Origin: a virus
Taxonomy: Duplodnaviria; Caudoviricetes
IMG/VR virus record: IMGVR_UViG_3300021135_000011
Coordinates: 1,213-65,212 of that record
Reading direction: 5' to 3' (one strand)
Length of the DNA stretch: 64,000 nucleotides
Each line of letters begins with the position of its first letter. The stretch's first letter is position 1. Shown in pieces: positions 26,778 to 39,642 of this stretch. Made by a program: the position numbers and the translations under genes. The notes below the pieces were generated by a model. It was given only the letters and a program-made list of their open reading frames with translations. It had not been told where the DNA came from and ran no database searches.

Positions 26778-26848
26778 TAGTCCTGCATGGAATCAAACCA
26801 CAATTAAAGGCTCCAAAAACCATTGTCTTATCATTAGACCACAGGACT
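26778..26848 (-). tRNA. tRNA-Gln(UUG), degenerate
   Basis: Acceptor AGTCCTG/CAGGACT, D-stem GTCT/AGAC, anticodon loop TTTTGGA (stem has a T-T mismatch), T-arm TGTGG-TTTGATT-CCATG; no encoded CCA. Confidence 0.75.
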
Positions 26849-27962: not shown

Positions 27963-27994
27963 CAAAGATAAACTAAATAAGTTTATAAAACAAA
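27963..27994 (-). promoter_or_regulatory. Bacteroidota-type promoter TTTG-N20-TATCTTTG
   Basis: Exact -33 TTTG and -7 TAnnTTTG, facing the 26854..27864 gene. Confidence 0.75.
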
Positions 27995-28138
27995 TATTTT
28001 TTAAAAAATTTTATTTTGGATTTTTTGGTGTGTAGATGTGTATGATATAGCTCACCCATACAACGCACCGCCTTAGATATATATGGGGAAGTACCCCCGT
28101 ATCAATTTCATTTTTCACCAAATCAAATACGTACTATT

Positions 28139-28642
28139 ATGGTAACGACTGATGTTCAATTAAAAGTAAAGACCGTTACATTGACTAACGGCACCACGAG
28201 AAATAATCTCGTAGGATTTGTTCTCGGCAGAAAGGCATATGTGCCTGATTGTAATTCTGTTGCTGAATTCATTGCAGACGTGAATGCAGGTCGTCGTGAT
28301 CTCACAGGCATCTCTGAAGGTAAGGAAGTGTCCAATTGGACTAATCCTAAGACTGGATTGGTTGAACCATTTGTTGGTACGTCTTCATGCGTTTGGGGCA
28401 CAACAAGTCCTGTTCAGACTGCGGCACAGGCTCTGGAGTACCAAAAGAAAATGGACGCTCTATTAGCCCGTAAAGAGGGTCGTGATACATCTGCGCCTGT
28501 TGTGGATTATGTTCAGGCTGATCTGCAAGCTGTAACTGCACGTAGGGAAGCTATTCGTGCTAAATTGGCTCAAGCGGCTGAATTAGAGGCTCAAAAGCAA
28601 TTAGCTGCGGCTGGTGCTAATACTGAACCTGTATTGCCTTAG
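28139..28642 (+). CDS. First plus-strand gene; Ala-rich hypothetical protein
   Basis: 167 aa, visibly higher GC than neighbours. Confidence 0.75.
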   Translation: MVTTDVQLKVKTVTLTNGTTRNNLVGFVLGRKAYVPDCNSVAEFIADVNAGRRDLTGISEGKEVSNWTNPKTGLVEPFVGTSSCVWGTTSPVQTAAQALEYQKKMDALLARKEGRDTSAPVVDYVQADLQAVTARREAIRAKLAQAAELEAQKQLAAAGANTEPVLP

Positions 28643-29028
28643 TACTTAAATTACTCTCATTGACTGGACACATGATACTTGAACGTATTGTGTGTCCTTG
28701 TTAATGGGTTAAGTCTTGAGTAAGGGTGAATGCAATTTGTTGTAAGTCGTATGTAATCTAATCATTATATGTGATGGTATCGAATGCATTATCTCATCTA
28801 CTCGAATGTGAACTCGTGGAAGCTCTACTCATGTTTAGGGTTCACAATTTGTCGAAGATATGAGACACAATTGTAATGGGTGGGTGGGAAATATCATACA
28901 TCCTTCCAAGTTCTACCATTACGGCAATCCCAAATAGTAGAGAAATGAACACCGTATAAGGAGTTTTCTATTGTATAGCTAGTATAGATTTAATTATCTA
29001 AGCATACTATTCTATTTTAGTTAAGTGC
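28642..29028 (+). ncRNA. Putative ~390-nt multi-hairpin RNA
   Basis: ggacacatgatac/gtattgtgtgtcc (13 bp, 2 G-U), ctcattgac/gttaatggg, tgtgaactc/gggttcaca, gtaatgg/ccattac; ends gtacttaa/ttaagtgc. Confidence 0.55.
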
Positions 29029-29040
29029 AATTCTAATTTA

Positions 29041-29313
29041 TTACATTGTAGTCTTAGGTATGAATTGTAAGTTGCAATTGTATTCCAATACATTAGCAAT
29101 TTCTATTATAAGACCTAATTGCAATTGCATTGGATTATTCAATAATAGATTCAATTGCTTTCTACTCATCTTTAATCTCTTTGCTAATTGCACTTGAGTA
29201 TATTTTTTAGACTTAATTAGTTCTTTTAAGTCAAATGTAACTTCTGTAGGGATAGAAAGTAATAACTTAGATTGCATTGTGTAACATTTTTTAGTACAAT
29301 ATAATATAAACAA
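29041..29313 (-). CDS. XRE-family HTH regulator (start probably MQSK)
   Basis: YTQVQLAKRLKMSRKQLNLLLN; promoter TTTG-N20-TATATTAT at 29332-29301. Confidence 0.8.
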   Translation of the reverse strand: MFILYCTKKCYTMQSKLLLSIPTEVTFDLKELIKSKKYTQVQLAKRLKMSRKQLNLLLNNPMQLQLGLIIEIANVLEYNCNLQFIPKTTM

Positions 29314-29501
29314 TTAGTTTTAATTAAACAAATTGGCATTTTAATTAAGGTTTTATATTAATTTATATAAGAATATGAGGGGAAATTGGGTATTAATCCT
29401 TTTATTTATGTAGTCACTTAACTACAAATCACCTATTTAAAAATAAAAAAATTCGGACGAATATGGGTAAATAATTTAATTCACGCCTAAATCTATTAAA
29501 A

Positions 29502-29774
29502 ATGGATAGAAGATTTGATGATACAAATGAAAGATTAATTCTTAATTGTATTAAAGAGTATTATCCTTTAGAAGTATATACAGATAGTCTTATGATAAGA
29601 TTTGTTTATTCTAAGGTATTTAGTAAACAGATATTATTTAATTGTTTGAATAAGCTTTTAGATAAGAATTGCATTTTGCAAAATAAAAAAGGCAAATATT
29701 TATTTCATAAAGGATTAGATAAATTTGAATTAATTAGTTCTTATTGTAATAAATGTATTTATTCTATTAGATAG
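29502..29774 (+). CDS. Hypothetical (wHTH-like) protein
   Basis: ORF track; LFNCLNKLLDKNCI...GKY. Confidence 0.5.
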   Translation: MDRRFDDTNERLILNCIKEYYPLEVYTDSLMIRFVYSKVFSKQILFNCLNKLLDKNCILQNKKGKYLFHKGLDKFELISSYCNKCIYSIR

Positions 29775-29824
29775 ATTTATTATAACAATTGCACACCAAA
29801 AAATAAAAAAATTTAAGTCTAAAA

Positions 29825-29982
29825 GTAATAGATAGCAGTAGGATCTAGTAATAATACATAAAAAGAGCCATGAGACGAATCCCAATAATGCCGAGGGTAG
29901 AGGCAAGTGTTATTACTATTACAATAAGATTTTCCAATAAACAACTATGTATGGGTAAGAGTTGTATCTTATTATCTATTAT
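29825..29982 (+). ncRNA. Putative structured RNA
   Basis: Closing gtaatagata/tatctattat; inner tagtaataatac/gtgttattacta, aataagat/atcttatt, acaact/agttgt. Confidence 0.55.
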
Positions 29983-30008
29983 GAATTGCACATTTATTTT
30001 TAAAAATG

Positions 30009-30396
30009 CATCCTTTGGTATGAAGGCTGGTAATAATAAACAAGCATATCACCCTCACCCAAAGGATGATATGCTATTGTTCATTACCAATTATTATCCT
30101 CAGTATAAGTTAGTTTTGGCTGTTAGTGAGCAACAAGCAGTAAGACTCTGCTAACATTTAAAATGCATTTCGACTTATATGGAGTCTTTAGGGGTGATTT
30201 CTAAAGGCATACAAGTCTGATTACGTCAATCTTACAGGATTGTGGCGATATGCCTGAGTACTCAATACAAAAGGCAATTAGATGAGAGATATGGACATAA
30301 AAAAGCCCATTGATTGGATGTAGGAGCATCTTCTCAACAGGCTAGATATAAGTGTTTATGCTAATATCTCAAAAGTTATGATCAGTTGCTCCTACA
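30009..30396 (+). ncRNA. Series of stem-loops (one or several RNAs)
   Basis: catcctttgg/ccaaaggatg (30009-30068), ttgttcatta/tagtgagcaa (30077-30133), tgtaggagca/tgctcctaca (30319-30396). Confidence 0.5.
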
Positions 30397-30452
30397 ACTA
30401 TAATACAATATAAACAAAGTATTTGAATCTACCAAATGGTAGAAATCTAAAG

Positions 30453-30484
30453 CAAAGATACGTAAGTTTATTTAATTAACCAAA
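30453..30484 (-). promoter_or_regulatory. Bacteroidota-type promoter TTTG-N20-TATCTTTG (antisense orientation)
   Basis: Exact consensus; no minus-strand ORF of 60 aa or more until 29313. Confidence 0.7.
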
Positions 30485-30492
30485 TTTATTTT

Positions 30493-30651
30493 AAATAATA
30501 AAGGCTAAATATAAAAATATCGTGGATAGTATGAAACGGTATAATTAGAATAGAATAGTTGTAAAAATGCATAGCCCGGAAAAACGGTTGTTAAGGTTTG
30601 TGCTATACCTAAATCGTCTATTAATTCTAATTTGTTTAGTCTTTATTATTT
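30493..30651 (+). ncRNA. Putative structured RNA
   Basis: 19-bp closing stem aaataataaaggctaaata/tgtttagtctttattattt (2 G-U); inner aattagaat/attctaatt. Confidence 0.6.
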
Positions 30652-30716
30652 ATAATTAGTTGCATGCCTAAAAATATTTATATTACATTTATTCATTATA
30701 TTAAAAACTCAAACAA

Positions 30717-30929
30717 ATGAAAAGTATAATCACAATATCAAATCTGGATAAAAACCAATTTTTCTTTACAACAGATCATTGTCAGCCACATAATTTAGGC
30801 GATGCATGGGTTAGTTGTACTACGTCCAATACTACAAGAGAAATAGTAAAAAATCAGGAAGAAAATGCAATTAATGAATGGACTAGATGTATTGAAATAC
30901 CTAATCCACAACCAGAATATCAGGCTTAA
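30717..30929 (+). CDS. Hypothetical protein
   Basis: AAAACTCAAACAA leader then ATG. Confidence 0.6.
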   Translation: MKSIITISNLDKNQFFFTTDHCQPHNLGDAWVSCTTSNTTREIVKNQEENAINEWTRCIEIPNPQPEYQA

Positions 30930-31300
30930 TAATTAATTGTGTCTTAAAAATTGAAAATTATTATTTAATCCTATTATAAAAATTCAAACAAATGCAAACA
31001 AAAGAAATAATAATAAATAAAGAATTAGCTTTAAAAGTCAAAGAAACAGTTTCTCATGGCTTATGTAAGGGAAAATTTTCAATTCATAAATCATAAATTA
31101 ACTAATATGAAAAACAAACTATTATTCTGGATCTATATAACAGCTATTTTATGTTTAGCTGGTTGTATACAAAATTATTAAATATACTAGGATCGTTAGT
31201 TAACATTACATCGAAATGAATTAGATATGTAGCAACCTCTCAAAGAAGTTCATGGACTATATATTATTTATAATATTATTAACTATTAAAACTTATTAAC

Positions 31301-31498
31301 ATGTTTTTTAACTTATTTGAAATAAAGATAATAAAGAAAGTCAAAAGAAAAAAGATTAGTAATGCAAAAGTAAAAAATAATACGTGCCCAAATTGTGGTA
31401 ATAGGTTAATAAGAAGTAACACAGATGATTTTAGTGATCCTTGTGATGATTTAGATTGTGATAACTGTGGATTTCATACTGTTGAATTTGTTGCTTAA
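31301..31498 (+). CDS. Zn-ribbon protein
   Basis: CPNCG...CDNCGF. Confidence 0.65.
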   Translation: MFFNLFEIKIIKKVKRKKISNAKVKNNTCPNCGNRLIRSNTDDFSDPCDDLDCDNCGFHTVEFVA

Positions 31499-31612
31499 TT
31501 GCACATCAATTTTATAATTTTTATCCGAAATGGTCGTTATGAAACGCAAGTTTCTTATACTGTTTCTGAGAGAATTTCGTTTGTTTAATTGCCTAGTTAT
31601 TAAAATTTATTA

Positions 31613-31763
31613 ATATAAATAATGTCTTAGGTAAAGGTGATGTGTAATATTATTATATTCTTTTGCACTGTAAACGCAAAAATTGTAGAAATACATATAT
31701 AATATATTGCAATTTTGGGGCCGCAATCCGCAAGTTTACTTTTATCTAAGATCTTATTTATAT
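31613..31763 (+). ncRNA. Putative structured RNA
   Basis: Closing atataaataa/ttatttatat plus tcttaggtaaaggt/acttttatctaaga (G-U pairs). Confidence 0.6.
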
Positions 31764-31813
31764 ATTATTGCGTTTTTAAGAAAATTTTTTAATCTATTAT
31801 TAAATATTATTAT

Positions 31814-31990
31814 ATGTATATTCACAATGCAGGAAAATTTCGGTTAAAAGGTAATAATATATATTTTATGCTATTTGGATTAATACCTGTTTATTTAGGT
31901 TATATATCTGGAGCAAAATATAGTGATAGAGAATTAATAAATGGCGCAATATCTAAAGAATTTTATGATATTGTAAGTAAATTTAAATAA
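31814..31990 (+). CDS. Micro-ORF (58 aa)
   Basis: MYIHNAGKFRLKGNNIYFMLFGLIPVYLGY...; below the track cutoff. Confidence 0.45.
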   Translation: MYIHNAGKFRLKGNNIYFMLFGLIPVYLGYISGAKYSDRELINGAISKEFYDIVSKFK

Positions 31991-32184
31991 TTGCCTTATT
32001 TAGGCTTTAACTAATAAAAATTAATAATATGGAAAGATATAGATTTATTGGTACAGTATCATATGATAATACATATATTTGTGATATTTATTGGGATAGA
32101 TTTGATTTATGTAAAGTTTATAGTATCGGTTATCTGTAATTAATTGCATTTATAAAAATATTTTTAACTCAAAAACTTAAAAAC

Positions 32185-32463
32185 ATGCGTACGAAAGTAG
32201 AAGTAATCGAAGTAGATGGAGAAGGATTAGAATCACTTCTCAACAAAAATGTAATGATAATGTGTTTTAATTATTTCTATACAGGTAAACTTGTAGGAGT
32301 AAATGATACATTTATTAAATTAGAAAATCCCCATATTGTCTATGAAACAGGTGCATTTTCTGATAAAAAATTCAAGGACGCACAAAAAATATCTGATAAT
32401 CCACACTACATTCAGATATCAGCAATAGAATCATATTGTGAATCAACAAAAACTTTGATATGA
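32185..32463 (+). CDS. Sm/LSm-like fold protein
   Basis: LESLLNKNVMIMC..YFYTGKLVGVNDTFIKLEN (Sm1-like) and HYIQISAIES (Sm2-like). Confidence 0.65.
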   Translation: MRTKVEVIEVDGEGLESLLNKNVMIMCFNYFYTGKLVGVNDTFIKLENPHIVYETGAFSDKKFKDAQKISDNPHYIQISAIESYCESTKTLI

Positions 32464-32630
32464 GCCTAAGACCACAATCTCGATTAAATAAAGTTTATAG
32501 GTCAGGGTCAGGGTCAGGGTCATGGTCAAGGTCATGGTCAGGGTCAAGGTCATGGTCAAGGTCAGGGTCAGGGTCATGGTCAAGGTCAAGGTCAAGGTCA
32601 GGGTCAGGGTCATGGTCAGGGTCAGTGTAA
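32460..32630 (+). CDS. 56-aa RS/GS/WS dipeptide-repeat peptide
   Basis: ATGA overlap with the Sm-like stop; MSLRPQSRLNKVY-RSGSGSGSWSRSWSGSRSWSRSGSGSWSRSRSRSGSGSWSGS-V*. Confidence 0.7.
   Translation: MSLRPQSRLNKVYRSGSGSGSWSRSWSGSRSWSRSGSGSWSRSRSRSGSGSWSGSV
32499..32624 (+). repeat. Tandem hexamer [A/G/T]GGTCA x21
   Basis: 21 contiguous units; only the first base varies (7 A, 9 G, 5 T). Confidence 0.98.
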
Positions 32631-32635
32631 TATAC

Positions 32636-32769
32636 TAAACTAATTCAAATAGGATAGACTGCAGCGAAGAGTTTTAACCTCATTTATGATATCCGTAGAA
32701 AGATTAGAAGGTAAGTCAATGTTTATGTATAAAGATAGATATACTATTACAACTCTTTCAATTAGTTTA
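32636..32769 (+). ncRNA. Putative structured RNA
   Basis: taaactaatt/aattagttta closing stem, gaagagtt/aactcttt inner stem. Confidence 0.4.
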
Positions 32770-32801
32770 AATTGCATGACTCAAAAAAATTATTATTGTT
32801 T

Positions 32802-32898
32802 AAGATCTTTAGTAGGTAGACAGGTAAATTGTAAGACTTGGAAATAAACTATATCTACAACAAGAAATTTATTTCTTTATCTATCTACTAAAGATCTT
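32802..32898 (+). ncRNA. Putative structured RNA
   Basis: 19-bp stem aagatctttagtaggtaga/tctatctactaaagatctt (1 G-U), 59-nt interior. Confidence 0.6.
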
Positions 32899-33100
32899 TT
32901 ACTAAAACAACAAAATTATGAAAACAAAAACTAAACAAATAAGATTTCTATCTATATTAACTATAGGTAGATTTGAAGACGGTGATATTCTTTTAAATAA
33001 ATCTAGAACTAATTGTGTTATGTTTACTCTTTTTGGTTTAGATGTTTATTTGAATTAAAATGCACGACAATTTTGCAAAAATATTAAATAAAAATTCAAT

Positions 33101-33340
33101 ATGAATCAACAGGAAAAGCAAAAAACATTACAAAAACTCTACGATATGACTTTTGTACCAAAAGAATGGGTAGAATTTAATGGAGATTATAAAAAATGCA
33201 TGCAAGATATTAGACTCAAAGATGGTACAGAAATAGAAGAATGTTGGCCTAATGCTGGAAAATTTAATGTTTTTTCTATTAAACATAAACCAATACCTAT
33301 TTCTGAAGTTACCCATGTAAAAGCACATAAAGGATGGTAA
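33101..33340 (+). CDS. Hypothetical protein
   Basis: DIRLKDGTEIEECWPNAGKF. Confidence 0.65.
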   Translation: MNQQEKQKTLQKLYDMTFVPKEWVEFNGDYKKCMQDIRLKDGTEIEECWPNAGKFNVFSIKHKPIPISEVTHVKAHKGW

Positions 33341-33353
33341 ACAAATTAAAAAC

Positions 33354-33431
33354 TAAATAGGCAGAGAGAAAGATAATAGTAATCTATATACAGGCAGGAC
33401 TTAAGTTGTTTGTATTATCTCTGTCTATTTG
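33354..33431 (+). ncRNA. Putative structured RNA/processing hairpin
   Basis: taaataggcagaga/tctctgtctatttg (14 bp, 2 G-U). Confidence 0.5.
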
Positions 33432-33783
33432 ATTAAATTGTAAAAAATATTTTTTAATCAATTAAAAACTCAAATTTATGGTAACAACAATTGTATTTGG
33501 TATTGCATTAATATATTCTATAATGTATATACAGCTATTTGTAATGACAATATATGCAAAAAGCAAATTAGAAAATATAGACCTCGCAATATGTCTTTTA
33601 AGTTGTATTTTATGGTCTTGGTTATGGTATTTATGTCATTAAAACTCAAAACTTATGAAAAATAGAATAGCAAATAATTTTGAAAATAGTCAAAATACAT
33701 ATGGTAATGGTAATGGTTATTCACTATTAATTAGAATCCGACTATTTCCATAGTTGGATTATTTTTAAAATAAATGCAAAATT

Positions 33784-33993
33784 ATGCATAAAATATTAAA
33801 AAAATTTGCTATATGGCCCACGCAAGTTACAATAAGTTGGGATAAATATAAATTCACTTGGATATTTCTTAAAACATATTATGTAATAGATAATGTAAGA
33901 TTTAGATGGCGCAAAGATGCATTAGAATTTTCTACAAGATTTTTAAAAGATGAATTGCAAAAAGAAATAAAAGAATTAAAAGAAAAAATATGA
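33784..33993 (+). CDS. Hypothetical protein
   Basis: KKFAIWP...WIFLKTY. Confidence 0.55.
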   Translation: MHKILKKFAIWPTQVTISWDKYKFTWIFLKTYYVIDNVRFRWRKDALEFSTRFLKDELQKEIKELKEKI

Positions 33994-34186
33994 AAAAAGA
34001 ACATTTTACACCGTTATTCACGGCTATAATATTATACTTAGTTTGGTTTGCATTTTTTGGATTATGTGTGCATTTACCAATTAGTATAGTATTAGTACCT
34101 TGGATAATAGGATTAGTAAGTTATATTATATTGAAAAGATTAAAATTTTTTATTTAACAATTAACAACAAACAAAACACAAACAAA

Positions 34187-34762
34187 ATGAAAAAGTACCT
34201 ATTAATTGCAATTAGTTTATTATCTCTTACAAGTTGTGAGTATGATAATCATCCGAGAAATACATCTGCAATAGATGAACAAGCACACACGGAATTAAAT
34301 CAACGCGATTTAAACCAAAAACAACCTGCACCTACAATTACATGGAGCCTTGAAAGAGATAATCTCATTAAAAGGTTTAAACTGCAAAATGATCGTGCAG
34401 TAATGTTTTATATGTATATATTCATAGAAGGACAAGGGCAACCAATTGGTTATTATCAGATAAATAAAGTATCTTCTGTAAATAGCCAACTTACAAATAC
34501 ACAACAAGTTGTACCTTTTCACATGTATGGTGGTGGGTATACTTATGATATTCTACCAAGTCCCGCAGAAGATGGTTCTTATGGTACAAATGGTGATGGT
34601 ATGTTTGGATTTACACCTGATGACATCTATATAGAAACAGATATGCATTATATTACAAGCACAATCCCACTTACATTTGAGAAACCTGTTAATTGTATAG
34701 CAATAATTACAACAGAACAAGCACGAAAAGCATTAGAAATTTCTAAAAAAGCAATGCAATAA
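34187..34762 (+). CDS. Lipoprotein
   Basis: MKKYLLIAISLLSLTSC lipobox; SLERDNL, KVSSVNSQLT, PAEDGSYGTN. Confidence 0.8.
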   Translation: MKKYLLIAISLLSLTSCEYDNHPRNTSAIDEQAHTELNQRDLNQKQPAPTITWSLERDNLIKRFKLQNDRAVMFYMYIFIEGQGQPIGYYQINKVSSVNSQLTNTQQVVPFHMYGGGYTYDILPSPAEDGSYGTNGDGMFGFTPDDIYIETDMHYITSTIPLTFEKPVNCIAIITTEQARKALEISKKAMQ

Positions 34763-34764
34763 TT

Positions 34765-35151
34765 ATGAAAACATTTGGAATAATAGTATTATGCTTATTA
34801 GGTGTAGTTGCCTTAAGTATTTTTGGGTTTATGGGTACAACCTGTAATAATGCACAAAATCAAGTGCAAGACCATGTAGTAAATAATTCATTTAACAGTT
34901 ATGAAGAGTTTCAAGAGATATATAACACTTGTCAACAAGTTAATGATGATCTTGGAACTATAAAAGATGCGAATGAAAATGACAAAATGTTTGCTCAATT
35001 TTCAAAAACTTCTCAGCAAACCGCATTAAAAAAGAAAATGAATCGTTGGATAGAAGAATATAATGCAAAATCTAAAATGTGGAATAGAAGCATGTGGAAA
35101 TCAAATACATTACCATATCAACTATCTGCAAAAGATTTTAGTAATTACTAA
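34765..35151 (+). CDS. Membrane-anchored partner of the lipoprotein
   Basis: N-terminal TM; IEEYNAKSKMWNR. Confidence 0.7.
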   Translation: MKTFGIIVLCLLGVVALSIFGFMGTTCNNAQNQVQDHVVNNSFNSYEEFQEIYNTCQQVNDDLGTIKDANENDKMFAQFSKTSQQTALKKKMNRWIEEYNAKSKMWNRSMWKSNTLPYQLSAKDFSNY

Positions 35152-35170
35152 TTAAAAATTGTGCATAATA

Positions 35171-35270
35171 ATAAAATAGCAGAGAATGTGTATAAAACAA
35201 GAAACTTGCTCAGTCTAAGGATTAGAAATCTAAGAACGCAGTCGTATTAAGCACTTCTCTACTATTTTAT
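35171..35270 (+). ncRNA. Putative structured RNA
   Basis: ataaaatag-c-agagaa/ttctct-a-ctattttat closing stem. Confidence 0.5.
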
Positions 35271-35438
35271 CTATTAGCTCTGTAAAAAGGGTTAGGCTGT
35301 TATAATCTGCATAAACATTGTTCACCAATTTTGGGTATAATACAATGTGAGAAGATGTGATTTCTATAGGGTAAATGCAGACTAATATAGAAATTGTTCA
35401 TATTATAGCAGTGCTTAAACAATTTAAAACTCAAAAAA

Positions 35439-35654
35439 ATGCAAACGCAACCAAAAATTTACATCATCGGAGGGCAAATAACAGAAATACCTCAAATTGC
35501 AGAAGCTACACAGTATCCTCAGATACAAAAACAGTTTCATCCACGCACACACCCAAATATAAAATTGCAGCAAAAAATTCAAAAGAAACTGCATAAACAG
35601 TCAAAGTTTACCAAAAAAATACACAGTTTAACAGAATTAGAAGTAAGACATTAG
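35439..35654 (+). CDS. Basic hypothetical protein
   Basis: AAAACTCAAAAAA leader before ATG. Confidence 0.55.
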   Translation: MQTQPKIYIIGGQITEIPQIAEATQYPQIQKQFHPRTHPNIKLQQKIQKKLHKQSKFTKKIHSLTELEVRH

Positions 35655-35666
35655 GATTTTTGAGTT

Positions 35667-35732
35667 CTCAGATAATAGGTGCGGTGTGTATAAGCCGTTA
35701 AATAGTATCATATATACAGCCTGTTATCTGAG
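35667..35732 (+). ncRNA. Stem-loop (RNA element or terminator)
   Basis: ctcagataatagg/cctgttatctgag (13 bp, 1 G-U), inner gtgtata/tatatac, T-run follows. Confidence 0.5.
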
Positions 35733-35782
35733 TTTTTAAAACGCAAATCTATTAAAATTTTTTAAAATTCAATCTAAATAAA

Positions 35783-36004
35783 ATGACAACACTAACAAAA
35801 TTTTCAAAAAAACGCAGTGCAATTAATAGAAGATCTATAGTTAAAACACGACTAGAAGAACAATTACTTGCAGGAACTAAACAAAAAAAGTTTTTTGTAG
35901 ACGCAGAAGGTAACTTTACCCCCGCAATAGAAATGATTCCCTTAGAAGAATTAGATAAAGTACGCATTACTAAAGAAATAGCAACCTTACAAACAAGAAT
36001 GTAA
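35783..36004 (+). CDS. Hypothetical protein
   Basis: ORF track. Confidence 0.6.
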   Translation: MTTLTKFSKKRSAINRRSIVKTRLEEQLLAGTKQKKFFVDAEGNFTPAIEMIPLEELDKVRITKEIATLQTRM

Positions 36005-36005
36005 A

Positions 36006-36320
36006 ATGGAAACACTTATAATAGTAATTGGTGTAATAGCAGGCTTAGGTCTGCTAATGTGGTATTCTGCAGCAATGGGAGGTTTTGTGGTATATAAATT
36101 TTGGTATTGGTTTTTGTTACCAATTTTTCCAAATTTACCACATATAAACTATTGGGAAGCAGTTTCTTTAATGATGTTTATTAATTTATGTAAAAGTTCA
36201 TACACAGATAATATAAAAAAAGAATATAAAGATTCACAAAATTTTTACATAATAAAGGCAATACTTAATCCAATTTTACAATTATTAATTGGATATATTG
36301 TCTACAAATGTATTTATTAA
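36006..36320 (+). CDS. Multi-TM membrane protein
   Basis: GFVVYKFWYWFLLPIF, several hydrophobic segments. Confidence 0.7.
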   Translation: METLIIVIGVIAGLGLLMWYSAAMGGFVVYKFWYWFLLPIFPNLPHINYWEAVSLMMFINLCKSSYTDNIKKEYKDSQNFYIIKAILNPILQLLIGYIVYKCIY

Positions 36321-36400
36321 AATACTATAGGTTTTATCAGTTTAGATTCTTGTAAGAAAACTGATTTTTAAATTATTGAAAAACTCTAAAAAATTTATTT

Positions 36401-36739
36401 ATGAAATTATTATCAATAGCTTTAATTCTAAGTATAGGATTAAATGCATCTGCTCAATCTGATTTATATACTCAATCTTTTAAAGGAGATTCTATTAGAA
36501 TTGAAAAGCAAAAATATTGGTGTTATGCGTCTGTAGAAAATATTTTTGAAAATGCAACACCCTTTATAACAACAGATAACCTATATTTTACAGTATCTTA
36601 TAGTAAGTACATGCTCTATGATAATCTAACGCAAACAAGGTATATCTGTACATCACTTAGAGATTCTAATATTACACCCCACTTAGTATATCTAATAAAT
36701 CTAATCAGAGAAAATCGTGTATATAACAAATCTTATTAG
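36401..36739 (+). CDS. Secreted hypothetical protein
   Basis: Bacteroidota-like signal peptide ending ASA-Q. Confidence 0.6.
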   Translation: MKLLSIALILSIGLNASAQSDLYTQSFKGDSIRIEKQKYWCYASVENIFENATPFITTDNLYFTVSYSKYMLYDNLTQTRYICTSLRDSNITPHLVYLINLIRENRVYNKSY

Positions 36740-36834
36740 TATGGGAAACTTTCAAGCAATTTGCCACTATCTTACAATAATAATAGTGGTACAGATTATT
36801 TCAAAAACAATTTTAAGGTGGCAAGAAAATAAAT

Positions 36835-37359
36835 ATGAAGATGAATGAAAAGGAATTTCAAGAAGATTTATATAGAAATTATTTAAGTAGATTTATTGGA
36901 TATGTATTAAAACGTCGTTGTAGTTTACAATATTGTGATGCACAAGAAATTGCACATAATGCATTTTTAAATATATTTAAATATAGAAACAATATTAAAA
37001 ATGATGCGGCGTTTGATTCGTGGATGTTTAAAGTGTTACATAACGCCATGAACCAATATGTCCAAAGAAATTATGAAAAAATTTCTGCAATAAAGATTAC
37101 GCTATTTGAGAATCTCCATGATAATGTATTACAAGATATACCAAATTATCAAGAGATTGAAGAAGAACTTATTAAAAAAAAATTAGAAAATGCAATAGGT
37201 CGGGAATCTGCATATAAAAAACATGCTTATACAATAGTAAAAATGTATAATCAAGGATATAATTGCCGAGATATTTCAGAAAAAATAGGATTAGCTTATA
37301 GGCATACTAAAAGTATTAAACAACACGCATATAAACAACTAAAAAACTTATTAAAATGA
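36835..37359 (+). CDS. ECF-type sigma-70 family factor
   Basis: Region 2 DAQEIAHNAFL...FDSWMFKVLHN; region 4 GYNCRDISEKIG. Confidence 0.85.
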   Translation: MKMNEKEFQEDLYRNYLSRFIGYVLKRRCSLQYCDAQEIAHNAFLNIFKYRNNIKNDAAFDSWMFKVLHNAMNQYVQRNYEKISAIKITLFENLHDNVLQDIPNYQEIEEELIKKKLENAIGRESAYKKHAYTIVKMYNQGYNCRDISEKIGLAYRHTKSIKQHAYKQLKNLLK

Positions 37360-39642
37360 GTAAGAATAGCCGTAGAAACCAACGCAAATTATTTAAAGAA
37401 ATTTGTGATAACGTATTAGGGTTAGATATAATACCTAATAGAAAACGCAATATACATAATATAAAAAGCCACAAAAATAAGGCAACGCATTCATTGCACA
37501 AAGATTCAAAAGAGACAAAAATAAAACGTGCCACAGGATTTAGACCTTTTGCACACAGTAATCACGGAGCAGAATAAATAAAAACTAATGGAAAAGGAAG
37601 ATAATATAACAGAACAAGAATACTTAGGATTATTAAATAGCTTGGATTGGTATTATAATTTTTCTGATTCAAATGCCGTGCAGGAAGAAAATTTTTTAAA
37701 AGACGCAAGATTAAAAAGACTTGCAATAAATAATTCAAGATTCAAAGAATTATATCATAACGAACAACAAAAACGATTTAAAAGAAATTAAAATGAAAAA
37801 AAGCAACGGATTCGGTATCAGCTATATATCCTTAATATACATTAAATAATGCAATTAATAAAAAATTTAGAAGATTTGCAATTTGTTTTGAATTCCAAAG
37901 AAGAATATAGCTTATATACAGATCATTGTGGAAAAAAGATATTAATTTCACATGAAATGGTTTTAAGAACGCAACTTTGTCAAATAATTGCAAATATAAA
38001 AATAAAAAAATATTGGTTTGAACTCAAAAAATCTTAAATATGTCTAAAAAGTATTGCAAAAATTGCCACGCTATTACAAACCATACACGAGATTTAGATT
38101 GTTCTAAATGTGGTAGTACACACGAGGACACAATTGAAGAAGAAAAAGACACTGAATTAGACCTTGCCTGGAAAGATTCAGATTTTGAAGAAAGATATAG
38201 TAAAAGAGAACATAAAACTCATAGTTTAAGGGGTTGGTAAGTAATTAGAATAGTAGGTGTTGTAAGCAAAAGCAAATCAGAGATGATAACACACTGTCCA
38301 AATATTTTATTTGAGTTTTTTATTTGGAAGGAATTTTGGTATTAAATAGAGTCCAAACCTATTATTTTTTAAAATTGTCGTGCAGAATGGTACAAAAAGT
38401 AAAAAAATTAGTCACAGTGCGCAATCAAGCATGTGACAGAATTGAAGAATTTATATATTACTTAAGTGATTACGAAGAAAAAGAAGAAGAATTAAAAAAG
38501 TGTATACAAGAAATAATTATAGAGTTAAACCAAATTAAAGGAATGCATTCTATAATAACGTACCAAGATAAACAATTGCAAAAAGTCAAAAAAATTTTAA
38601 AGGCAAGCAAATACCCAGATGATTTATTTAAAAATCTTAAAGATCTGTGTAAATGTTTTGGAATAAATTAATTTTATGAAAAAAATAACAAATAAATTTA
38701 ATATAAACGACACTTGTTGGGTTATGTATCGTAACAAACCCTTACAAGTACTTGTTACAAAAATTAATCTATCAGAAGATGAAAAAAACATCTATTATAG
38801 CGTTAGAGCAACAAATAAAGAATTTCCAAATAGTTCATATGTAGATGCTGTAAATATATATAGCACTAAAGATGATTTAATAAGTTCATTATGACTACAA
38901 AAAATGAAATACCAATAAAACCATATAATAACACAGAAATTTTAAAAAAGGCAATGCAACCCACATATACTTTAGAAGATATGGAAAATCTTTGGAAATT
39001 CAAATCAAAAGTAAAATCAATGGATTGCACATTTAAGGAATATATGGAATCATTAAATGAACATAAAAATAAAAAATAATTACCGATTTATCAAAATTTT
39101 TTCGTAAATTTGTAATAAATAACTAAATTATGTCAGTAGAAAGAAAAAGTGTAGAAAAATCAGAATATCAACATTGGTCAAAGCATCCTAGTTATCTTGG
39201 ATTTGTAGCAATTCCTTCAGAATATCCTTCAGCTAAAATAAGTGGAATACAAGAAAATTCTAAAAATGAAAATGCACACCCTAGTATTAAAGAAAAACTA
39301 GAAAATGCTCTAAAGAAAAAATAATTATTAATAAAATCTAAATTAAAAACTCAAAAAATGAAAAAGCAAATCACAAAACCAGTATTAGAAGTAAAATCTA
39401 TTTTTAAGGGTGGGCAAGTACTACCAGAAACAGATTTAACTAAGAAGCATTCAATTTTAGAATTAGGGGTGCAAAAGAAGTATGAAAATGAAAAAGGTAA
39501 TATATCTATTCATAAATCAGAGAAATTGCGCGAAAAAAATTTAAAAAAAATGCAATTTAAACAAAAAAAGTCATTAAACCATCTATACAACTTCTTAGAA
39601 AAGAAATTAGAAGGAATGTTAATGGTACAAGGTAATAATTAA
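37356..39642 (+). other. Run of about ten small hypothetical CDS (37356, 37588, 37849, 38040, 38324, 38676, 38891, 39130, 39358)
   Basis: Co-oriented, closely packed ORFs in the track; 38040 has a CKNC/CSKC Zn ribbon, 38676 is KOW/SH3-like. Confidence 0.55.

Follow-up and report, generated by a model that had tools for sequence, protein, structure and literature searches.

The early genes of phage T7 are separated by long, irregular intercistronic RNase III hairpins that leave a protective 3′ hairpin on the upstream message and, to our knowledge, these sites release no functional small RNAs. How phages of Bacteroidota punctuate their early transcription and set its timing is poorly known; their hosts do without Shine-Dalgarno sites and follow a promoter grammar that differs. 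Here, we analyse a candidate for such an early region, positions 29780–35760 of a 64,000-nucleotide (nt) stretch of viral DNA (the whole of which we refer to as the window), which corresponds to positions 1213–65212 of the 65-kb IMG/VR virus record IMGVR_UViG_3300021135_000011. A previous inspection of the letters alone (the sequence-only reading) had described this region as an array of unrelated long-stem RNA modules on the plus strand, interleaved with very short open reading frames (ORFs), and had proposed that one polycistronic early transcript is cut into a library of small RNAs (sRNAs). The excess of stable folds in the region is real, and the feature is partly reinterpreted: we lean about evenly towards a mixture of elements that act at the transcript level and lie on either strand, instead of one processed library. 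The locus that carries them, with a balance of confidence close to the midpoint, would be a gene-poor early or control region rich in ORFans.

The closest described architecture, by analogy, is that of the PeSL (promoter-early stem-loop) cassettes of the T4-type phages RB49 and phi1, whose ORFan boundaries combine a stop codon in AT-rich DNA with a promoter and a terminator stem-loop (PMC2839356). The likeness lies in an early region that is hyperplastic and made up of small ORFans, with a recurring promoter-type motif and often a stem-loop for termination or attenuation at their boundaries, whereas the stem-loops of PeSL cassettes are short, often carry G/C tracts and sit in a conserved repeat that matches the host sigma-70 consensus (PMC2839356). 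The hairpins discussed here are instead 60–180 nt long, unique and present at some boundaries, and the motif that recurs beside them, AATTGCA, is off the Bacteroidota consensus. The position at boundaries of small ORFans within a variable early region is found in both systems, and a repeated motif with a host-consensus promoter is not found here. What the locus offers is a promoter family that elsewhere abuts an ATG and here precedes an ORF-free, predicted 410-nt structured RNA, together with G-U-rich gene-end hairpins, ORF-free cassettes and a gene pair of LSm-like and SR-like character. If these RNAs are expressed, they would constitute new RNA families from an abundant lineage of freshwater phages; if not, the region would provide terminator-rich ORFan cassettes comparable to the PeSL regions of T4-type phages.

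An excess of stable folds

Each claimed element was tested by comparing its minimum free energy (MFE) with that of 100–200 dinucleotide shuffles on both strands, and the region as a whole was tested with an RNALfold-type scan for local folds (z-scores from a support vector machine), in which non-overlapping folds with z ≤ −5 were counted. On the plus strand, 29780–35760 contains seven such folds, compared with 0.13 ± 0.34 when the dinucleotides were shuffled block by block (30 shuffles, maximum 1). Stem frequency, the comparison on which the sequence-only reading had staked its claim, thus differs from what AT-rich sequence gives after shuffling, which makes the feature a real one. Along the window, the plus strand carries seven of these folds in 28600–35800, four in 35801–64000 and three in 1–28599, which places the fold density of the region approximately 7-fold above that of the rest.

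These numbers bear on the idea that the structures are non-functional leftovers, i.e. ORFan cassettes in decay and palindromes carried along in a hyperplastic region where only the canonical terminators work. Conservation that is confined to near-identical strains, promoter-like motifs without ORFs and the three claimed modules that turned out to be chance would all fit this idea. It nevertheless appears improbable, as folds that lie 5–8 standard deviations beyond their shuffles are not what decayed coding sequence looks like, and neither the seven folds against 0.13 expected nor the ~7-fold lower fold density elsewhere in the genome, coding or not, is accounted for.

Individually, seven of the 11 claimed modules beat their shuffles on the plus strand (z −3.9 to −6.4), one is better on the minus strand and three are indistinguishable from chance. 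The seven comprise the modules claimed at 30009 (z −4.25 on the plus and −4.4 on the minus strand), 30319 (30315–30401, on both strands; −4.55/−3.9 and −4.7/−4.3), 30493 (30483–30662; −3.9/−4.45 and −4.3/−3.9), 31613 (31613–31764, plus strand; −5.3/−5.4/−5.9 and −2.6/−2.7), 32802 (32798–32903; −6.4 and −6.0), 33354 (33355–33431, plus strand; −5.0 and −2.2) and 35667 (35655–35745, plus strand; −5.9/−5.8 and −3.9/−3.1). The module at 35171 (35161–35281) folds better on the minus strand, with z −3.5/−3.0 on the plus and −5.8/−5.3 on the minus strand. Those that did not survive are 29825 (29825–29925, plus strand, z −1.1/−1.2; the entire gap 29775–30035 scores +0.4 on the plus and −1.0 on the minus strand), 30077 (plus strand, z −1.3/−1.8) and 32636 (32636–32769, z −0.5 on the plus and −0.9 on the minus strand), none of which is significant. 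Two structures were absent from the sequence-only reading: 33698–33816 (z −5.2 on the plus, −2.3 on the minus strand) and, beyond the range it had covered, 28630–28735 (z −8.1 and −2.9). As for coding potential, the ORF 32686–32847, which overlaps the claimed module at 32636, scores +0.19 per codon and the ORF 29870–30154 scores 0.00; homology searches with either return only the query itself.

The claim that the stems use G-U pairs on the plus strand holds in part, with 33 such pairs on the plus strand and 17 on the minus strand when summed over the MFE folds of eight supported elements. The elements at 28630, 30483, 31613, 33355, 33698 and 35655 are 11–22 kcal/mol more stable on the plus strand (4–9 G-U pairs vs 0–2 on the minus strand), and this advantage is at least 12 kcal/mol for the modules 30483, 31613, 33354 and 35667. 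It does not hold for 30009/30032 and 35161 (the claimed 35171), which are more stable on the minus strand, nor for 30319 and 32798 (the claimed 32802), which are roughly equal on the two.

Strand asymmetry is also what speaks most directly to a role at the level of DNA, whereby the palindromes would be cassette boundaries, recombination hot spots, protein-binding or cruciform sites, or would control replication near the strand-switch at ~28 kb. This is an unlikely explanation, even though 30483, 32798 and 30319 do equally well on two strands, hairpins lie at module boundaries beside AATTGCA, the minimum of the GC skew falls at ~28 kb, and there is a precedent in PeSL regulatory cassettes, which are reported to mediate shuffling (PMC2839356). 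The G-U asymmetry at 28630, 31613, 33355, 33698 and 35655 would be meaningless in duplex DNA, and the elements have no common sequence, so homologous exchange between them is impossible.

That the elements are unrelated in sequence, as originally stated, was borne out: none has a second copy in the window. A family of miniature inverted-repeat transposable elements (MITEs) or other repeats was ruled out on this ground. The attC sites of integrons carry RYYYAAC ... GTTRRRY cores at the ends of their palindromes. These cores are absent from the ends of the closing helices and no integrase is among the PHROG matches of 60 ORFs, which rejects an integron attC array; as no element is repeated, the elements are neither MITEs nor attC sites. 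RNA anti-CRISPRs imitate the CRISPR repeat of the host in sequence and structure, often in short arrays; among the elements there is no repeated unit.

A predicted non-coding RNA gene on the minus strand

Promoters of the TAnnTTTG type are the Bacteroidota consensus. A perfect copy, TTTG-N20-TATCTTTG with the upstream part AAATTTGGTTAATTAAA, lies on the minus strand at 30453–30492 and is followed by a ~410-nt stretch, 30036–30446, that covers the modules claimed at 30009, 30077 and 30319 and that we refer to as the candidate non-coding RNA (ncRNA) ncRNA-1. Between 28600 and 35800, the minus strand holds three perfect promoter matches where 0.51 are expected (P = 0.015), and the plus strand has none. 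The stretch is more strongly structured on the minus than on the plus strand (z −7.55 vs −3.56), and a separate fold test of the minus strand gave z −5.67, with 0/100 shuffles equally stable. Its end is marked by a hairpin with a U-rich tail at 30032–30094 (z −7.6 on the minus, −6.1 on the plus strand), which includes the strongest local fold of the whole window (30087–30032, minus strand, z −8.55) and coincides with a minus-strand match of the terminator scan at 30075–30043, where a hairpin is followed by a run of U. Since this hairpin is stable on the plus strand too, the terminator could be bidirectional.

The promoter itself belongs to a family. Its 41-nt stretch recurs, at higher depth, in several other metagenome-contig contexts, and in L002, one of the related loci (numbered with an L here), it is positioned 4 nt upstream of an ORF. 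A pattern built from two copies, those of the window and of L002, was searched in IMG/VR and returned 16 loci, all of which have an ATG 4–32 nt downstream and 15 of which have a downstream ORF of at least 58 amino acids (aa). In the window, the extended family motif TTTGNTTAATTAAA is restricted to the minus strand (26384, 29335, 30487). The first ATG behind the promoter at 30453–30492 is ~120 nt away and opens a 42-aa ORF (30329–30201) with a coding score of −0.49 per codon.

This ORF gives rise to a different interpretation, in which 30446–30036 is the mRNA of a 42-aa peptide, toxic or membrane-bound for example, with a long structured leader. The peptide would be partly hydrophobic and its start codon is buried in the hairpin at 30319, an arrangement that occurs in some tightly controlled small-peptide mRNAs. 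Yet, the coding score falls into the range of random ORFs of the window, no candidate homologue was found, the ORF is uncalled in the source record and the distance of ~120 nt to the ATG departs from the 4–32 nt seen in 16/16 loci of the promoter family, all of which makes a peptide-coding mRNA rather doubtful. With its own promoter, no credible ORF, a structured body and its own terminator, 30036–30492 has the features of an ncRNA gene, and we predict from these features that 30446–30036 encodes a structured ncRNA on the minus strand.

Because the promoter is of the canonical host type, ncRNA-1 would probably be made at once after infection. Its terminator, if bidirectional, would at the same time stop plus-strand read-through from the upstream unit. 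Population data contribute a natural variant, 30068 G>A, which turns a G-C into a G-U pair on the minus strand and creates a C·A mismatch on the plus strand; it preserves pairing by wobble on the minus strand only and, as a single-nucleotide polymorphism (SNP), provides weak support for that strand. Compared with known phage ncRNAs (reviewed in PMC12197685), the predicted gene is similar in its order of promoter, structured RNA and terminator without an ORF, and the paired ends of the cassette at 31613 described below are likewise reminiscent. It differs in that ncRNA-1, at ~410 nt, is longer than typical sRNAs, in its provenance from a lytic phage with a probable Bacteroidota-type host and in having no Rfam match.

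The TTTGTTTAATTAAA promoter family has a weaker copy at 29335–29319, ahead of a possible minus-strand ORF at 29277–29041 (78 aa, coding score +0.06). Inside this ORF, AATTG[C/T] occurs six times within 130 nt (29063–29192, with AATTGCAATTGCATT among the copies), a cluster that could be an operator array or a codon repeat. The two further perfect promoter matches on the minus strand, 32943–32911 and 35586–35554, are directed into the hairpins 32798 and 35161, respectively. Neither carries the extended motif of the family, both fall within A-rich stretches of coding sequence or gene starts, and they may be due to chance; the 397 nt behind the match at 35586–35554 are not unusually structured (z −3.0).

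Hairpins at the ends of genes

Five of the supported hairpins start close to a stop codon, at most 12 nt ahead of it or 20 nt behind it. On the plus strand, 28630–28735 begins 12 nt before the end of the ORF 28139–28642 and forms 43 pairs, nine of them G-U (folding energy E −43.6 vs −21.9 on the minus strand), with an inner part that was also returned by the terminator scan; 33355–33431 lies 15 nt past the stop of the ORF 33101–33340 and has five G-U pairs on the plus and none on the minus strand; 33698–33816 is a structured gene end at the ORF 33655–33753 that holds a canonical terminator, 33735–33760, followed by ATTTTT; and 35655–35745 lies 1–4 nt past the stop of the ORF 35439–35654, with six G-U pairs and five T after the upper stem. 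On the minus strand, 35161–35281 (E −36.8, compared with −28.5 on the plus strand) is found 10–20 nt past the stop of the ORF 34765–35151. As a side observation, 28630–28735 is the strongest plus-strand-specific structure near the region, and the ORF it follows is GC-richer.

Loops too large for terminators and missing U-tails had been given as hallmarks of the modules. The first of these did not stand up, as the supposed large loops fold into further helices, giving long irregular hairpins of 31–46 pairs at 33355, 35161 and 35655 when inner helices are counted. The second is true of part of the set: a hairpin followed by a U-run is present at 33735–33760 (plus strand) and at 35667–35733 (TTTTT), and 30483–30662, 31613–31764, 32798–32903 and 28630–28735 have no run of at least five T after the closing helix, their tails being GTTGCATG, TATTGCGTTTTT (8 nt away), TTAC and TTTGTTG, respectively.

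The hairpins at 28630, 33355, 33698, 35655 and perhaps 35161 would each end or stabilise the short message of one small gene. They would do so as intrinsic terminators or, where they are long and poor in U-tails, as T7-style RNase III sites or barriers to 3′ exonucleases. Intercistronic hairpins with at least ~20 irregular pairs, as at T7-type sites, are found at 28630, 33355, 35161 and 35655, and 28630, 33355 and 35161 share the T7 layout of an intercistronic, mRNA-strand hairpin with a poor U-tail. Several elements of the region have U-runs, unlike T7 RNase III sites, and may be plain terminators. The likeness to T7 drawn by the sequence-only reading is thus reasonable as an analogy for the gene-end hairpins, and functional small RNAs are not implied by it.

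It is here that the original model can be weighed, according to which host RNase III cuts a long early plus-strand transcript into a library of trans-acting sRNAs, i.e. decoys or regulators, possibly with the help of an Sm-like protein. Closing helices of 13–27 pairs surround folded interiors at 30483, 31613, 32798 and 33355, the G-U bias favours the plus strand, an Sm/LSm-fold gene sits in the middle of the array, and the lack of any perfect host-type promoter on the plus strand of the array fits few promoters and long transcripts. A single polycistronic plus-strand transcript is nevertheless not supported: the predicted minus-strand unit of promoter, RNA and terminator at 30036–30492 intervenes, and plus-strand terminators with T-runs lie at 33735–33760 and 35667–35733 inside the array. 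Moreover, three of the 11 modules are not real, four to five elements are ordinary gene-end hairpins, and no repeated or shared motif was found among the loops of the elements. What survives of the library are strand-specific plus structures in a region of which ~37% of the bases (29780–35760) lie outside every ORF with a positive coding score; as a whole, we regard it as unlikely.

ORF-free cassettes and recurring motifs

Within the mixed set of elements that we favour, two or three ORF-free or leader cassettes whose ends pair in a long helix would resemble stable small RNAs, and of the elements that remain, 30483–30662, 31613–31764 and 32798–32903 qualify best as possible stand-alone or leader RNAs. 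The cassette at 31613–31764 lies between two small ORFs, is itself free of ORFs and folds on the plus strand only (z −5.86, 0/200 shuffles equally stable); a closing helix of ~27 pairs, G-U pairs among them, joins its 5′ end to its 3′ end, the interior is three-way, and an AATTGCC motif is located 26 nt upstream. At 32798–32903, a near-perfect hairpin of ~20 pairs is placed between AATTGCA (32770) and the ATG at 32918, so that this element may be the 5′ leader of the ORF at 32918 or a stand-alone RNA. In 30483–30662, inverted arms of 27 nt flank 125 nt (E −41.5 on the plus, −29.2 on the minus strand); the 5′ arm shares bases with the upstream part of the minus-strand promoter described above and the 3′ arm adjoins the AGTTGCA of the next cassette.

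AATTGCA with an A/T tract recurs at module boundaries and often overlaps the preceding stop codon. The motif is positioned 14–38 nt ahead of the hairpins 29825, 30009, 31613, 32798 and 35171 and 40–58 nt ahead of ATGs, and it overlaps or follows the stops at 31497, 31989, 32142 and 33058. On the plus strand, 14 copies lie in 28–37 kb, compared with 12 in the next 27 kb. AATTGCA may be a promoter, an operator or a processing signal, and plus-strand cassettes could need another factor for their transcription, perhaps the phage sigma factor encoded at 36835–37359. A scan for the sigma-70 consensus was uninformative (73 matches vs 70.8 expected).

A second recurring motif, the AACTCAAA box, is present in nine copies in the window, all on the plus strand (30706, 32166, 33467, 33643, 35428, 38021, 39348, 43373, 56897). 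Six of the nine were checked and all six lie 3–12 nt before an ATG, mostly 3–4 nt, a spacing at which leaderless genes in related phages, L002 and L028 among them, carry their −7 promoter box. The box may therefore be a leader or promoter element. The arms of the gene-end hairpin 35655–35745 carry the octamers TTTGAGTT (35659) and TGAGTTTT (35729), both complementary to AACTCAAA. A complete 10-nt complement of the box, TTTGAGTTTT, occurs at 38310. Separately, a 36-nt stretch at 33774–33809 (AAATGCA ... AAAATATTAAAAAAATT), located at the ATG 33784, is common to other metagenome-contig contexts, which hints that another regulatory cassette, of the AATTGCA/AAATGCA type, is shared as well.

An Sm-like gene and its repeat partner

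The Sm-like gene that had been placed amid the array is indeed there. An AlphaFold2 model of the product of 32185–32463 (plus strand), built with 11 homologues, has a mean pLDDT of 76.5 and consists of a helix (H14–18) and five strands. In a Foldseek search of this model against the PDB, every match listed is an Sm/LSm chain (TM-score 0.55–0.78, probability 1.00, E-value 9e-4 to 4e-3), and Pfam gives a weak match to DUF6897 (E-value 0.005). The protein is accordingly predicted, on the basis of the model, to have an Sm/LSm fold with an N-terminal helix and a bent five-stranded β-sheet. The family is found in freshwater and soil viral contigs. LSm-like proteins of Tevenvirinae, such as T4 GoF (PMC12152347), are likewise reported as small and early with a predicted fold and without useful sequence homology; the gene described here has no sequence relation to GoF and differs in being coupled to a conserved (Ser-Gly/Arg/Trp)n ORF.

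This partner, 32460–32630 (plus strand), overlaps the stop codon of the Sm-like gene (ATGA) and its product would have a basic N-terminus and then the repeat (Ser-Gly/Arg/Trp)n, written in 21 GGTCAN hexamers. A GGTC[A/T]N array of 6–35 units follows the Sm-like gene at a distance of 21–53 nt in 11/12 loci examined (the window, L007, L008, L009, L011, L013, L014, L016, L018, L021 and L023). Position 5 of the hexamer is uniform within each array and position 6 is variable, and the frame TC[A/T]-NGG alone yields one product, (Ser-Gly/Arg/Trp)n, in both flavours of the hexamer. In eight of the 11 array loci, an ATG in the Ser frame overlaps the end of the Sm-like gene and is followed by a basic N-terminus, which is kept through synonymous changes of codon family (AGT/TCT for Ser, CGA/AGA for Arg). 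Judged from its sequence, 32460–32630 thus looks like a real small gene that is coupled to the LSm-fold gene and contains an SR-like repeat. In L025 and L026, a tRNA-like T-arm sequence, GGTTCGATTCC, follows the homologue of the Sm-like gene, with the hexamer array further downstream.

More speculatively, these parts could be combined into an RNA-centred take-over module, in which the immediate-early 410-nt RNA, the end-paired cassette RNAs and the LSm-like/SR-like pair would form a ribonucleoprotein that times early genes or disarms RNA-based defences of the host. The AACTCAAA-complementary element 35655–35745 would be one such RNA, with targets in a box that precedes at least six early genes, and the modelled LSm-like protein and its (Ser-Gly/Arg/Trp)n partner would bind or chaperone the RNAs. 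We consider this improbable as a whole.

Relatives and population data

Scans anchored on proteins recovered 5 + 5 viral loci and 16 metagenome loci with aa identities of 50–67%, and two additional protein anchors yielded no loci. Using blastn with word sizes of 9 and 7, none of the elements was found in the related loci. Freshwater metagenomes hold near-identical DNA, and contigs assembled from four DNA runs proved near-clonal, with 15 single-base differences and two single-base indels over 9.5 kb; only two of these changes fall in a supported element.

Several of the observations weigh against the mixture of elements favoured here. Two genes (52–67% aa identity) and none of the elements are common to the window and the nearest loci, which are too distant for covariation analysis. 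Population support amounts to one informative SNP, and none of the 24 listed sequencing runs is RNA. The hairpin at 30319 has four G-U pairs on the plus and none on the minus strand, which is awkward for a purely minus-strand reading of this hairpin, and 30483 and 32798 are equally good on two strands, making a DNA-level role possible for them. U-tails behind 28630, 33355 and 35161 are weak or absent. With regard to initiation, perfect TTTG-N17–22-TAnnTTTG promoters are missing from the plus strand between 28 and 64 kb (0 vs 1.2 expected), and the enrichment of AATTGCA is modest, at ~3.5-fold.

Genome context and host

Genes for portal, terminase and major head proteins occupy the minus strand up to 27864, and the plus strand carries replication genes and the phage sigma factor at 36835–37359. 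The minus-strand block is preceded by a perfect TTTG-N20-TATCTTTG promoter at 27970, and the cumulative GC skew is lowest at ~28 kb, at the strand-switch. A-rich tracts that contain no Shine-Dalgarno site lie ahead of the start codons. Together with the TTTG-N20-TATCTTTG promoter, this is consistent with a Bacteroidota host; the phage is an uncultured freshwater lytic phage, probably of such a host. Among cultured phages, a nucleotide search returned Tenacibaculum phage Gundel_1 as the sole match (68% over the lipoprotein gene and a 128-aa gene).

In the region itself, 15 of 17 ORFs have no Pfam match at E ≤ 0.01 and the other two have weak matches (zinc ribbon, DUF6897). No single reassignment of a stop codon opens the ORF-free gaps. 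Known RNA families were also considered: none of the elements matches an Rfam sRNA, riboswitch, ribozyme, GOLLD/ROOL/HEARO, transfer-messenger RNA (tmRNA), 6S or other family, the tRNA/tmRNA scan found nothing within the region, and an Rfam search of 28000–37000 at E ≤ 5 gave three chance-level matches (E 0.9–3.3), none on an element. Over the whole window, the sole match of the Rfam covariance models at gathering score is a tRNA at 26778–26848.

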